Origin: Bacillota bacterium
GTDB taxonomy: Bacteria > Bacillota > Negativicutes > JBAXTZ01
NCBI GenBank assembly: GCA_037129925.1
Contig: JBAXTZ010000004.1
Location: 21,444 to 85,443, forward strand
Direction: 5' to 3'
DNA: 64,000 nt
Part shown: positions 45,092 through 48,310 of the stretch, piece after piece
Position numbering within the stretch: position 1 is the first letter of the stretch
Layout of the letters: every line of letters begins with the position of its first letter
The notes under the pieces: generated by a model
What the model was told of the DNA's origin: nothing
Seen by the model: only the letters and a program-made list of their open reading frames with translations
Databases searched by the model: none
Made by a program: the position numbers and the translations under genes

Positions 45092-45838
45092 ATGAATTTA
45101 CAAGTGCGCCGCCTATTTCATCGCGATGAGTTGATTGATGTAATTAAAATGCAAGAAGCAGTTTGGACAAATGATATTGTACCGCTGCACCGCTTACTAG
45201 CCGATGTCCACAGCGGCGGCATCATTCTCGGCGCTTACGAAGATTCTGCGCTGCTCGGTTTTCAATACAGCACTCCGGCAATATTACGCGGACGGGTTTT
45301 TCTTTGGTCGCACATGACCGCCGTGCTTCCTACCATCAAAGGCGGCGGTGTCGGTTATCAGCTAAAGCTCCGGCAACGCGCCGAGGCGCTAGCCGATAAT
45401 TACAAATTAATCGCCTGGACGTTTGACCCCTTGGAATCTCTTAACGCCAATCTCAACATCGGCAAACTTGGCGCTATCTGTTCAACCTATACCGAAAATT
45501 ATTATGGCGATTTGGACGATATCCTAAATAGCGGCATGGCAACCGACCGCTTGAAAGTGGAATGGCATATTAGCGACACGCCGCTGGCCGCTGGTGGCTC
45601 GGATGATGCATTATCAATATTTGTTGAAGTTCCGTCCAACATCCAGGAACTGAAAATAACTGACAAGACCGCGGCAATCGGCTGGCGGCTGAAAGTACGC
45701 CAGGAATTGCAGACAGCCTTTGCCGATGGCTGGGCTATTTGCGGGTTTATCAACAACGGCAAAACCGCAACCACGCATCAATACCTGCTCAAACCAAGAA
45801 ATCTCTTAAATGCGGAGGCTGCGCCATGGAATGCCTGA
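45092..45838 (+). CDS. GNAT family N-acyltransferase
   Basis: ATG at 45092 after AGGAGA. GNAT motif A region IKGGGVGYQLKLRQRAEA. Its 3' end overlaps the next gene start by 13 nt. Confidence 0.65.
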   Translation: MNLQVRRLFHRDELIDVIKMQEAVWTNDIVPLHRLLADVHSGGIILGAYEDSALLGFQYSTPAILRGRVFLWSHMTAVLPTIKGGGVGYQLKLRQRAEALADNYKLIAWTFDPLESLNANLNIGKLGAICSTYTENYYGDLDDILNSGMATDRLKVEWHISDTPLAAGGSDDALSIFVEVPSNIQELKITDKTAAIGWRLKVRQELQTAFADGWAICGFINNGKTATTHQYLLKPRNLLNAEAAPWNA

Positions 45839-46941
45839 AAATTAATTCACTTACCATTCGCAGCCTGCGGATGAAACTTAAGGAACCCTTTATTACCAGC
45901 TTTGGAACAGAGTTGGACAAGGAATTTTTGTTATTGACAGTACTCGATCAAGATGGAATTGCCGGCTGGGGCGAATGCGTGGCTATGGAGCAACCAATTT
46001 ACAACGAGGAGACTAATGTCACCGCCAAGCATTTATTGCGCGATTTTTTGTTCCCGTTGCTGCGCGGGAAAACTATCCGTCATCCCGACGAGCTAGCGCA
46101 AATATTCGCGCCCATTCGCCGCAACCAAATGGCTAAAGCGGCTTTGGAATGCGCGGTCTGGGATTTGTATGCCCGCAAAAACAACCTGCCACTGTATCAA
46201 GCGCTCGGTGGTTCCCGCAAAAAAATCGACGTCGGCATCAGCATCGGAATGCAAGCCGAGCCTAAACTATTGGTTCGACAAGTAGAAAAATACGTTCACG
46301 CCGGTTATAAACGCATCAAAATAAAAATCATGCCAGGCAAAGATTTGCATTATATCGACGCTGTGCGCCAAGCTTTTCCCGCCGTTCCGTTAATGGCTGA
46401 TGCCAATTCCGCCTACTCGCTTGACGATATTGAATTACTAAAGGCCATGGATGGTTATTACTTGATGATGATTGAACAACCGCTGGCGCACGACGACATA
46501 ATCGATCACGCGCTATTGCAGTCCAAAATAAATACTCCCATCTGTCTGGACGAGAGCATTCATTCTTACGAAGACGCGCGGCGGGCGCTGTCGATTGACG
46601 CCTGCCGAATAATTAATATTAAATTAGGTCGGGTTGGTGGATTGACAGAAAGCCGCAAAATCGAACAACTTTGCCGCGAGCGTAACATACCGGTGTGGTG
46701 CGGCGGTATGCTCGAAGCCGGAGTTGGTCGGGCTTTTAACGTGGCGCTGACCACACTTTCCGGCTTTACTCTGCCCGGCGACACCGCCGCCAGTAGCCGC
46801 TATTGGGAACGCGACATCATCAGTTCGGCAGTTATGGTGAGTAACGGCGAGATTACTGTGCCTCAAGCTGCAGGTTTTGGCTACGAGTTGGACTTCGAGG
46901 CAATCAATTCATTTACCGAGACAACCGCAGAAATCATCTAG
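45826..46941 (+). CDS. Enolase-superfamily o-succinylbenzoate synthase / N-succinyl(acyl)amino-acid racemase-like enzyme
   Basis: 371 aa MR/MLE fold. GGAGG RBS. Translationally coupled to the GNAT gene. Confidence 0.8.
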   Translation: MECLKINSLTIRSLRMKLKEPFITSFGTELDKEFLLLTVLDQDGIAGWGECVAMEQPIYNEETNVTAKHLLRDFLFPLLRGKTIRHPDELAQIFAPIRRNQMAKAALECAVWDLYARKNNLPLYQALGGSRKKIDVGISIGMQAEPKLLVRQVEKYVHAGYKRIKIKIMPGKDLHYIDAVRQAFPAVPLMADANSAYSLDDIELLKAMDGYYLMMIEQPLAHDDIIDHALLQSKINTPICLDESIHSYEDARRALSIDACRIINIKLGRVGGLTESRKIEQLCRERNIPVWCGGMLEAGVGRAFNVALTTLSGFTLPGDTAASSRYWERDIISSAVMVSNGEITVPQAAGFGYELDFEAINSFTETTAEII

Positions 46942-48310
46942 CCAGCGTGGTCATTGCTTCAGCGATGACCCGGGTGCCAAACATTAATTCATCGATATCG
47001 GCATTTTCATCGGCATTATGCTCCCGACCAGACTTGCCGCCGGGAATTCCCATACCAAACGCTACGGTGTTTGGTAATTTTTTTGCGTAAGTGCCGCCAC
47101 CCATCGTGACCGGTTCCAATTCTTTTCCAAAATGTTTGCAAAATATCGCATTGAGCGTCGTAACCAAATAACTGTCTTTGGGGAAATACAACGGGTGGGT
47201 AAACTTGCCAATTTCCAGCTGCAGTCCTGCTGCTGCCGCAGTTTTGGCGACATCATCAGCCGCCTGTTCCGGCTTGAAAGTCACCGGAATCCGCACATCA
47301 CAGCCGACCGAAACAACATCGTTTTCACAACGAATCCGCGCCAGATTCAGGGTCAATTTCCCGGATGGTTGGTCTTCATAGCCGATACCCAAAGACTGTC
47401 CGTTCACATCTCTGCCAATAATTCTATTTATAATTCTAACAAACTCGGCTATCGAACCATTTAGCTTTTGCGTTGCCAAAAACGCCACTAATTTTGTGAT
47501 AGCGTTATCGCCCTTTTCCGGAGTTGAACCGTGCGCGGCGATACCTGTTGCCTGCAAGACTACTTTACCATCAATAATTTCCGCAGTTATTCCGGCAACT
47601 GCATTGGCAGTATTAACAAAAGCTGCTGCATTTTCGCTAACAACCGTGGCGCTTACGGCAGTTGGCACAATATTCATGGTGTCGCCGCCAAAAATACTCT
47701 CAATATATTCGCCACTGCCATTATCAACGATTTCCATCGACAAAAACGGGTGAATACCACCTTTTTCACCATAAACAACCGGAAAAGCTCCATCCGGAGT
47801 GAAGCCGAAAAGCGGGGACGGCGCGTGCGCTACATAGTATTCCATATCTTTCATGCCGCTTTCTTCATTACAGCCAAAGATTATCCGCACCCGGTGTTTG
47901 AGTTCGATACCAGCATCCTTAATTGCCTTCAAAGCGTACAGTGCGGCAATAATCGGACCCTTGTTATCATTACTTCCCCGCCCGATAATCTGATTATCAA
48001 TAATTCGCCCCTCAAGCGGCGGCACACTCCAGCCCTCACCCAGCGCTACGATGTCCAGATGTCCCAATACCGCGACATATTCGTCGCCAGCACCGTATTC
48101 AGCGTAACCGCAGTAACCATCCATATTAACCGTCGTGAACCCAAAACTAGCCGCCAGCACCAGCGCCTGATCCAATGCCTTGCGATTTTCCACACCAAAC
48201 GGCGCACCGGCTGCCGGTTCGGACTTGACACTTTCAAAATGAATCAACTCCTGAATTGATGCGATCATCGCCGCTTTGTTTTGCTCAATTAACTGAAATA
48301 CCTTTTCCAT
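46934..48310 (-). CDS. M20 family metallopeptidase (dipeptidase PepV-like / N-acyl-amino-acid amidohydrolase-like)
   Basis: M20 metal-binding motifs (GHLDIV, GRGSNDNKG, EE). The dimerisation/lid domain is present. Start taken at MEKVFQ after AGGGGGA. Confidence 0.85.
   Translation of the reverse strand: MEKVFQLIEQNKAAMIASIQELIHFESVKSEPAAGAPFGVENRKALDQALVLAASFGFTTVNMDGYCGYAEYGAGDEYVAVLGHLDIVALGEGWSVPPLEGRIIDNQIIGRGSNDNKGPIIAALYALKAIKDAGIELKHRVRIIFGCNEESGMKDMEYYVAHAPSPLFGFTPDGAFPVVYGEKGGIHPFLSMEIVDNGSGEYIESIFGGDTMNIVPTAVSATVVSENAAAFVNTANAVAGITAEIIDGKVVLQATGIAAHGSTPEKGDNAITKLVAFLATQKLNGSIAEFVRIINRIIGRDVNGQSLGIGYEDQPSGKLTLNLARIRCENDVVSVGCDVRIPVTFKPEQAADDVAKTAAAAGLQLEIGKFTHPLYFPKDSYLVTTLNAIFCKHFGKELEPVTMGGGTYAKKLPNTVAFGMGIPGGKSGREHNADENADIDELMFGTRVIAEAMTTLAR

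Follow-up and report, generated by a model that had tools for sequence, protein, structure and literature searches.

The locus lies in a 64-kb stretch of DNA, here called the window, and comprises a same-strand pair of genes coding for an acyltransferase of the GNAT type and an enolase-superfamily enzyme, which are flanked by a divergent gene for an MFS transporter and by a convergent gene for an M20 peptidase (Table 1). The start of the GNAT gene at ATG 45092 gave a product with the same length and start as its homologues P0001-P0003, and an AGGAG sequence was found at 45081-45085, 6 nt upstream of this codon. The enolase ATG was preceded, 7 nt upstream, by a GGAGG placed at 45814-45818 within the GNAT 3′ end, and the GNAT stop codon (TGA, 45836-45838) lay beyond this ATG, so that the two genes overlapped by 13 nt. 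This overlap, which had been pointed out in an earlier note on this DNA, was confirmed from the coordinates (45826-45838) and suggests translational coupling. The same note had described the M20 gene as convergent with the enolase gene, which was also verified, their 3′ ends overlapping by 8 nt.

Table 1. Genes and features of the locus, in positions of the 64-kb window.
Feature	Position	Strand	Description
MFS transporter gene	43764..45008	-	414 aa, MFS_1 match, divergent from GNAT
MFS/GNAT intergenic region	45009..45091		83 bp, divergent genes on either side
GNAT gene	45092..45838	+	ORF 45056-45838; ATG 45092; 248 aa
GNAT/enolase junction	45814..45838	+	GGAGG Shine-Dalgarno, enolase ATG, GNAT stop
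Enolase gene	45826..46941	+	ORF 45739-46941; ATG 45826; 371 aa
M20 gene	46934..48310	-	ORF 46934-48334; start 48310; 458 aa

The short region separating the divergent MFS and GNAT genes harbored a TATAAT at 45034-45039 (+) and two promoter-like matches on the - strand, all of them candidate sites only. The consensus scan for promoters and terminators returned sites no more frequently than in shuffled sequence and called no + strand promoter in this region, and an Rfam scan of the whole window, with zero matches, revealed no riboswitch or leader for the operon.

The enolase matched MR_MLE_N and MR_MLE_C (Pfam) and scored 378.3 bits on TIGR01928, the ‘menC_lowGC_arch’ equivalog, against a cutoff of 200.65, and its top PDB matches, 1wuf, 1wue, 1r0m, 2zc8, and 1sja, were all NSAR/OSBS enzymes. 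The inspection of the active site revealed a complete catalytic set composed of K165/K167 (KxK), the metal ligands D192, E217, and D242, and the second lysine K266, for which K161/K163, D189, E214, D239, and K263 of AmyNSAR served as reference, and these residues aligned with those of the D. radiodurans (1r0m) and T. thermophilus (2zc8) racemases. Moreover, R269, placed in ‘NIKLGRVGG’ three residues past K266, was the equivalent of AmyNSAR R266, a residue described as determining NSAR specificity, which the NSAR/OSBS subfamily conserves and other OSBS subfamilies lack (PMC12006748), and a GGMLE stretch occupied positions 293-297. On these sequence grounds the enzyme is a clear member of the NSAR/OSBS subfamily (MLE subgroup, enolase superfamily), as had been proposed earlier. 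It belongs to the same fold family as the enzymes of known structure from Amycolatopsis (NSAR, 1sja), D. radiodurans (1r0m), T. thermophilus (2zc8), L. innocua (1wuf), and E. faecalis (1wue), with which it has in common the KxK, D/E/D, second lysine, and R266-equivalent residues, and it was about 45-46% identical to the last four. The genomic setting is different, since the E. faecalis OSBS gene belongs to a men operon and that of the L. innocua enzyme to a cluster of cell-wall genes (PMC12006748), whereas the window enolase is coupled to a GNAT. Bifunctionality is frequent among NSAR/OSBS enzymes, whose two activities cannot be told apart from sequence alone (PMC12006748). The window enzyme is predicted to be an N-succinylamino-acid racemase, with a possible promiscuous or additional OSBS activity.

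The protein encoded upstream matched neither Pfam nor NCBIfam by itself, and the direct search of its sequence against the PDB gave nothing significant; its identity was thus settled by means of its homologues, a family profile, and the predicted fold. Acetyltransf_1 (Pfam) was matched by 45 of the 60 aligned homologues (best E of 6.9e-9), homologues carried GNAT names in their annotation, and the family profile produced weak matches to PDB GNATs (E of about 1e-3). The GNAT fold is defined by the topology β1-α1-α2-β2-4-α3-β5-α4-β6-7, and Foldseek related the AlphaFold model of the protein (pLDDT 94.3, pTM 0.91) with a probability of 1.00 to many GNAT acetyltransferases over about 160 residues, with TM-scores (normalised by target length) of 0.75-0.83. 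Judged by homologue annotation and this predicted fold, the protein is a GNAT, in agreement with the earlier reading. A candidate for motif A, the acyl-CoA pyrophosphate-binding motif Q/R-x-x-G-x-G/A, was seen in K83-G-G-G86-V-G88, which agrees with its G-x-G part: G86 and G88 were invariant or nearly so across the family, and the first position of the motif was occupied by Lys in the window GNAT and by Arg in most homologues. The window protein also presented the family signature W109-T-F-D-P-L-E-S and an extra C-terminal β-α-β-β domain (residues about 160 to 248). The window protein was a short form, with 248 aa versus about 276 and an internal segment of 30-40 residues missing. It was 37-44% identical to the GNATs encoded in the operons of Peribacillus and Sporomusa, and it is predicted to be a D-amino-acid N-succinyl(acyl)transferase. 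In the public record, the GNAT is named ‘hypothetical protein’ and the enolase ‘o-succinylbenzoate synthase’.

The linkage between the two genes was assessed in 80 species-level genomes carrying the window's GNAT family, considering NSAR/OSBS-type enolases with ≥45% identity to that of the window. Such an enolase was found immediately 3′ of the GNAT gene, on the same strand, in 54/80 genomes and within 6 kb in 62/80, an adjacency far beyond chance. The GNAT stop and the enolase start overlapped or were ≤30 nt apart in 51 of the 62 loci, a count that is an estimate, as start calls are approximate. Relatives with a GNAT identity as low as 44% still had the pair, with overlaps of 10-14 nt. The desuccinylase-type M20 of canonical operons, a TIGR01891 amidohydrolase of ~376 aa encoded on the same strand as the pair, was also nearby in 51/80 genomes. 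Among the 54 loci in which the enolase directly follows the GNAT gene, 16 had no linked M20D, which indicates that the two-gene form is a common arrangement. This GNAT family accompanies NSAR/OSBS genes in canonical D-to-L operons, among them those of Peribacillus (L007), Lysinibacillus (L057), Anoxybacillus (L020), Sporomusa (L096), and Desulforamulus (L097); for Lysinibacillus, a location of the NSAR/OSBS genes in operons for D-to-L conversion had already been described (bioRxiv 10.1101/2022.03.03.481873). In one close relative (L009) the enolase gene was deleted, with the flanking genes intact and the GNAT gene persisting, and in another genome (L008) the GNAT gene likewise persisted without the enolase. 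The deletion in L009 indicates that the enolase is dispensable, as expected of an accessory salvage function, and both cases raise the possibility of an enolase-independent role for the GNAT. A scan of metagenome contigs with the window GNAT returned four loci, one of them a 1.6-kb fragment, and added nothing to this picture.

The D-to-L operon of Geobacillus kaustophilus, known through work of 2006 as summarised in bioRxiv 10.1101/2022.03.03.481873 and PMC12006748, shares its GNAT family, its NSAR/OSBS subfamily, and its gene order with the window: the GNAT is followed by the enolase on one strand, and the genes overlap or nearly abut. The window differs in its shorter GNAT, in the divergent MFS gene upstream, in its host, an uncultured Negativicutes-like lineage, and in that neither the operon nor the rest of the window carries a TIGR01891-type M20 (tblastn with the Peribacillus operon M20).

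Instead, the M20 gene of the window coded for a protein that matched Peptidase_M20 (Pfam), scored 422.6 bits on TIGR01887 (cutoff of 207.95), and reached 434.7 on PRK07318, the PepV equivalog, 0.3 bits short of its cutoff of 435. Its PDB matches were S. aureus Sapep (3khx) and L. delbrueckii PepV (1lfw), with which it aligned over the full length, and its residues H84, D115, E149/E150, D173, and H431 were identical to PepV H87, D119, E153/E154, D177, and H439. The pairwise similarity to the operon-type M20 was not significant (E = 0.15). These comparisons place it as a PepV/Sapep-type M20A dipeptidase, a function predicted from sequence, and not as an amidohydrolase of the operon type; it is set apart from PepV and Sapep by a coding sequence that extends into the 3′ end of an NSAR/OSBS gene. 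The earlier statement that the same three families as in the described pathway are clustered here is not supported, because the M20 belongs to this other type.

With moderate confidence, the locus is best explained as a two-gene coupled operon, in which a GNAT-fold acyl-CoA-dependent N-acyltransferase is followed by an NSAR/OSBS enolase, both acting as a functional unit for the conversion of D- to L-amino acids. The mechanism is proposed by homology with the G. kaustophilus pathway: the GNAT would N-succinylate a D-amino acid, with succinyl-CoA as donor, and the enolase would interconvert the N-succinyl-D- and N-succinyl-L-amino acids via a metal-stabilised enolate, with K167 and K266 as its two presumed acid/base catalysts. 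An L-specific desuccinylase would then free the L-amino acid, rendering the conversion irreversible. The gene structure, the family memberships, the complete catalytic residues, and the GNAT-enolase linkage across many genomes are established; from these we infer the succinyl-CoA donor, the D-amino-acid substrates, and racemization, rather than OSBS activity, as the physiological function. The pathway is incomplete as seen, since the canonical L-desuccinylase is missing throughout the window; this enzyme, which the operon does not encode, would be unlinked or, less likely, its role would be filled by the neighbouring dipeptidase.

This last possibility corresponds to the three-gene D-to-L module of the earlier note, in which the PepV/Sapep-type M20 would be the L-desuccinylase by non-orthologous displacement of the TIGR01891 amidohydrolase. 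The M20 abuts the enolase, a layout kept in L001, L003, and L004, all its metal and catalytic residues are intact, and a window without the canonical M20D calls for another hydrolase. Furthermore, N-succinyl-Xaa differs from Asp-Xaa only by lacking the amino group, and the desuccinylase DapE is itself an M20A enzyme. However, being convergent, the gene is not co-transcribed with the pair, and its product scores as an ordinary PepV/Sapep dipeptidase. L001, L003, and L004 are syntenic with the window over >16 kb, so that the adjacency in these relatives carries no independent information. None of the 80 genome loci carried a PepV-like gene at ≤6 kb from the GNAT, L005 and L006 kept the GNAT and the enolase but had KdpD as neighbour and no M20 beside the pair, and L009 retained the PepV-like gene despite the enolase deletion. 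Conservation of the PepV-like M20 with the pair was consequently rejected, also given the lack of similarity to the operon M20, and its adjacency is best read as lineage-specific synteny. The M20 is probably a housekeeping-type dipeptidase, a convergent neighbour outside the module, and membership of all three genes in one module is considered unlikely. Of the module formerly proposed, the GNAT-NSAR coupling is supported and the M20 as its desuccinylase member is not. That the canonical desuccinylase was lost in this lineage and the PepV/Sapep-type dipeptidase took over the hydrolysis of N-succinyl-L-amino acids is an unlikely scenario; if true, a known pathway would have had one of its enzymes replaced by a non-orthologous one, and the PepV family would gain a new class of substrates.

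Two other readings concern the pair itself. The GNAT and the enolase could act on other substrates, such as an N-acetyl or other N-acyl amino acid, a peptide, or a metabolite handled by the MFS transporter, and not in succinyl-dependent D-to-L conversion; the missing canonical M20D, the divergent short form of the window GNAT, only 35-45% identical to those of canonical operons, and the flexibility of the family, which in L047 pairs the GNAT and an M20D with a different enolase-superfamily enzyme, would agree with this. The window and L005 also each have a divergent MFS gene upstream of the pair, but the two transporters are unrelated (E = 0.11), and a homologue of the window MFS, which is weakly GluP/FucP-like and under every NCBIfam cutoff, was present in 0/80 genome loci, the gene being conserved only in close syntenic relatives. 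The divergent MFS was hence rejected as a conserved part of the module, its membership in which is uncertain. As the enolase retains its active site and the R266 equivalent, and as both the GNAT and the enolase of the window group by similarity with canonical operons, action on other substrates is regarded as very improbable. It could also be argued that the enolase is the organism's MenC (o-succinylbenzoate synthase), the GNAT linkage being irrelevant to its main role or reflecting bifunctionality. The enzyme passes the TIGR01928 equivalog cutoff, its NCBI name is that of an OSBS, characterised NSAR/OSBS enzymes generally keep OSBS activity, and several of those outside men operons are predicted to be bifunctional (bioRxiv 10.1101/2022.03.03.481873, PMC12006748). 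Against this, Pfam scans of the ORFs checked found no men-type family (naphthoate synthase, AMP-ligase, TPP enzyme, UbiA, or isochorismate synthase) in the 64-kb window, ORFs 35073-36488 and 36756-37607 being covered only through their counterparts in a related contig; the enolase is therefore not clustered with menB, menE, menD, menH, menF, or menA there, and the earlier remark that no men genes are nearby was borne out at this scale. The enolase gene is, moreover, in tight coupling with the GNAT family known from the D-to-L pathway, and a close relative lacks it through a deletion that spared the neighbours. The enzyme was 52-63% identical to uncharacterised GNAT-linked Bacillota enzymes, and its closest homologues checked from cultured organisms, those of Sporomusa and Desulforamulus (62% identity), sit in GNAT/M20D operons and not in men operons. 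In the phylogenetic placement that the earlier note had called for, an NJ tree, the enolase nested in a GNAT-linked Bacillota clade, but this tree contains no men-operon-linked Bacillus-type MenC, so that it does not formally exclude proximity to men-linked enzymes. The organism may still need the enolase as its OSBS, as judged from the 64-kb window alone, although a MenC as the main identity of this enzyme seems improbable.

The coupling of GNAT and NSAR genes is real and already known, and the two-gene operon of the window leaves the understanding of the D-to-L pathway unchanged. Its value lies mostly in annotation, as the context argues for the names N-succinylamino-acid racemase and acyltransferase over those of the public record. 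Moreover, the survey revealed that this GNAT family, poorly detected by Pfam, reliably marks NSAR-type function in genomes, that the pair commonly occurs without a linked desuccinylase, and that its range extends into anaerobic Negativicutes and Desulfotomaculia.

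The enolase encoded in the window presented the N- and C-terminal MR_MLE domains (Pfam) and scored 378 bits with TIGR01928 (cutoff 200.65), and its best solved relatives were all NSAR/OSBS enzymes, namely 1wuf (L. innocua), 1wue (E. faecalis), 1r0m (D. radiodurans), 2zc8 (T. thermophilus) and 1sja (Amycolatopsis). The alignment to these enzymes revealed all the active-site residues that the earlier note had proposed to inspect: the KxK motif (K165 and K167), the metal ligands D192, E217 and D242, and the second catalytic lysine, K266. Domains, score, relatives and aligned residues therefore established, at the level of sequence, membership in the NSAR/OSBS subfamily, in agreement with the type assigned in that note. 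Three residues past K266, R269 was the equivalent of AmyNSAR R266, a residue reported to be conserved across the subfamily and to contribute to racemase specificity (PMC12006748); whether racemase or OSBS is the physiological activity cannot be read from sequence. The phylogenetic placement, also proposed earlier, was obtained with an NJ tree, in which the enolase and its relatives were nested within a GNAT-linked Bacillota clade and grouped neither with the E. faecalis/L. innocua pair nor with the Deinococcus-Thermus racemases. The public record names this enolase 'o-succinylbenzoate synthase' and lists the GNAT as a 'hypothetical protein'. The TIGR01928 equivalog labels GNAT-linked NSAR-type enzymes MenC in many genomes, which represents a systematic annotation risk.

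Features of the window, with positions and strands
Feature	Position	Strand	Remarks
DUF4127 ORF	8255-9802	+	487 bits; uncharacterised family
Aromatic amino-acid biosynthesis cluster	15101-23150	-	fused chorismate mutase-shikimate kinase at 15101-15916
Type I restriction-modification system	26241-33399	-	hsdR, hsdS, hsdM
ABC transporter block	36756-43281	+	begins with a 283-aa ORF
MFS transporter gene	43764-45008	-	divergent, 83 bp upstream of GNAT gene
GNAT gene	45092-45838	+	in ORF 45056-45838; ATG 45092, 248 aa
Enolase gene	45826-46941	+	in ORF 45739-46941; ATG 45826, 371 aa
M20 gene	46934-48310	-	convergent with enolase gene
Corrinoid-related genes	56583-60640	+	four genes in a row
DUF1861 ORF	62531-63475	+	340 bits; uncharacterised family

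The gene positions reported earlier matched the ORF map of the window. The GNAT start codon, preceded by AGGAG (45081-45085), was favoured by an N-terminus and a length equal to those of the closest homologues. The enolase start codon, preceded by GGAGG (45814-45818) within the 3′ end of the GNAT gene, and the GNAT stop codon (TGA, 45836-45838) defined the claimed 13-nt overlap. The M20 gene was convergent, as claimed, with an 8-nt overlap between 3′ ends. An Rfam scan of the window gave no match.

The upstream protein was matched by no Pfam or NCBIfam model, and its best phmmer hit in the PDB reached only E = 0.17. Its assignment as a GNAT, which was upheld, relied on the homologues named GNAT acetyltransferases, on the Acetyltransf_1 (Pfam) matches in 45 of 60 aligned homologues, on weak matches of the family profile to solved GNATs, and on the predicted fold. 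The AlphaFold model, built from a 60-sequence alignment, presented a pLDDT of 94.3 and a pTM of 0.91, and its first ~160 residues were superposed by Foldseek on many GNATs with probability 1.00. The motif-A position read K83-G-G-G86-V-G88, and the C-terminal ~85 residues were modelled as an additional beta-alpha-beta-beta domain, to which no solved structure corresponds. This protein and its close relatives were a short form, missing 30-40 internal residues of the Bacillaceae proteins.

The GNAT family signature was scanned against one genome per species, and the best 80 loci of more than 599 matches were retained. Among these best 80, an NSAR/OSBS-type enolase was placed directly downstream on the same strand in 54 (52-61% identity to the window enolase in Bacillota) and within 6 kb in 62; in 51 of the latter, GNAT stop and enolase start overlapped or were at most 30 nt apart by estimated ends, indicating that tight coupling is typical of the family. 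A ~376-aa M20 (TIGR01891 'amidohydrolase', hereafter M20D) was found directly upstream of the GNAT in 37 of the 80 loci and within 6 kb in 51. Where the enolase was directly downstream (54 loci), 16 had no linked M20D, so the two-gene form is not unusual, and the neighbours of M20D-less loci varied (RpiR regulators, a TRAP transporter subunit, an aromatic acid exporter). In two of them (L016:7988-9067 and L037:8019-9113), a ~360-aa ORF without Pfam match directly followed the enolase on the same strand and might encode an alternative hydrolase. Three other loci, L047:3542-8298 (Neobacillus niacini), L061 and L089, carried GNAT and M20D operons without an NSAR/OSBS enolase; upstream lay a different MLE-subgroup enolase (27-28% identity), under all NCBIfam cutoffs and nearest to muconate cycloisomerase, dipeptide epimerase and DgcA models, and in L047 a ThiO/D-amino-acid-oxidase-like FAD enzyme was downstream. 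In such loci the racemase may have been substituted, giving a variant of the pathway.

The D-to-L conversion pathway, described as first found in G. kaustophilus, combines a GNAT that acts as succinyltransferase with an NSAR/OSBS enzyme and an L-desuccinylase of the M20 family, and Lysinibacillus NSAR/OSBS genes were reported within such operons (bioRxiv 10.1101/2022.03.03.481873). Lysinibacillus and Anoxybacillus were among the best 80 surveyed loci. Operon context was checked for two enolases of cultured organisms, both 62% identical to that of the window: the order was GNAT-enolase-M20 in Sporomusa termitida and M20-GNAT-enolase in Desulforamulus hydrothermalis. By homology, the GNAT of the window would attach a succinyl group to the nitrogen of a D-amino acid, the enolase, using its two lysines and proceeding via a metal-bound enolate, would turn N-succinyl-D into N-succinyl-L forms and back, and the L-amino acid would be released by an L-specific hydrolase encoded elsewhere.

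The earlier note had read GNAT, enolase and M20 as one salvage module, of which the first two families stood; the M20 is present, but by sequence it is a PepV/Sapep-type dipeptidase and not the operon type. It scored 422.6 bits with TIGR01887 (cutoff 207.95) and 434.7 with PRK07318 (cutoff 435), its solved relatives were S. aureus Sapep and L. delbrueckii PepV, and it preserved PepV residues H87, D119, E153/E154, D177 and H439. Pairwise comparison with the Sporomusa operon-type M20 gave no significant similarity (E = 0.15), and no TIGR01891-type M20 was found across the window. This neighbour could itself be the desuccinylase, and it adjoins the pair in related loci L001, L003 and L004 (GNAT 73-82% identical); these share synteny with the window across more than 16 kb, and their M20 adjacency therefore provides no independent information. 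Against this possibility, none of the best 80 loci had a PepV-like M20 within 6 kb, and within the lineage of the window M20 presence did not track the enolase: L005 and L006 (60% identical) retained the MFS-GNAT-enolase order with KdpD as neighbour instead of M20, and L009 (68%) kept MFS, GNAT and PepV-like genes with only an enolase remnant. The MFS transporter was likewise rejected as a member, since the L005 MFS was unrelated to that of the window (E = 0.11) and no homologue was near the GNAT in the best 80 loci. On present evidence, neither M20 nor MFS can be assigned to the GNAT-enolase module.

The enolase could otherwise be the OSBS of the cell, solely or additionally. Its tight coupling to the GNAT argues against this role, as does the absence of men genes nearby, claimed earlier and corroborated here: Pfam scans of the window ORFs (35073-36488 and 36756-37607 through counterparts in a related contig) gave no candidates for naphthoate synthase, o-succinylbenzoate-CoA ligase, SEPHCHC synthase, isochorismate synthase, MenH or MenA. 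A third alternative is that the pair acts on another N-acyl substrate; each of the three (M20 as desuccinylase, enolase as OSBS, other substrate) is less likely, with evidence against it. The pathway, families and genome-context logic are already published; the locus adds an uncultured anaerobic lineage to their range, and its public annotation is wrong or lacking. Desuccinylation of N-succinyl-L-amino acids by a PepV-type dipeptidase, if true, would be the sole route to greater novelty.

The L009 remnant (L009:8722-8868, ~150 bp) is the counterpart of the whole enolase gene of the window. It reads 'KLNSLTIHALRMKLKKPFCTGF...', with the first ~25 enolase codons fused to a short 3′ tail and followed by a hairpin, and its two neighbours, the GNAT and PepV-like genes, are undamaged. 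This clean internal deletion of ~1 kb indicates that the enolase function is accessory and dispensable.

Elsewhere in the window, the aromatic cluster also carried DHQ synthase, chorismate synthase (79% identity to that of a Negativicutes MAG, 68% to that of a Veillonellales MAG), prephenate dehydratase, a NUDIX protein, EPSP synthase, prephenate dehydrogenase and a DAHP synthase with a ferredoxin-like domain. The chorismate synthase identities make an uncultured Negativicutes-like Bacillota the probable host. Between hsdS and hsdM, a gene for a PDDEXK nuclease (YhcG/DUF1016) was inserted. In the block kept whole in all close relatives, the 283-aa ORF, whose counterpart in a related contig had no Pfam family recorded, preceded an ABC transporter, an HlyD/AprE-like adaptor and a second ABC transporter, which may constitute a peptide or bacteriocin export system. 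Finally, the corrinoid-related genes, which encode a corrinoid-binding protein, a GTPase of the CobW family, an MFS transporter of the sugar type and a methyltransferase resembling URO-D/MtaA, have the look of a methyltransferase or demethylase system that depends on corrinoid.
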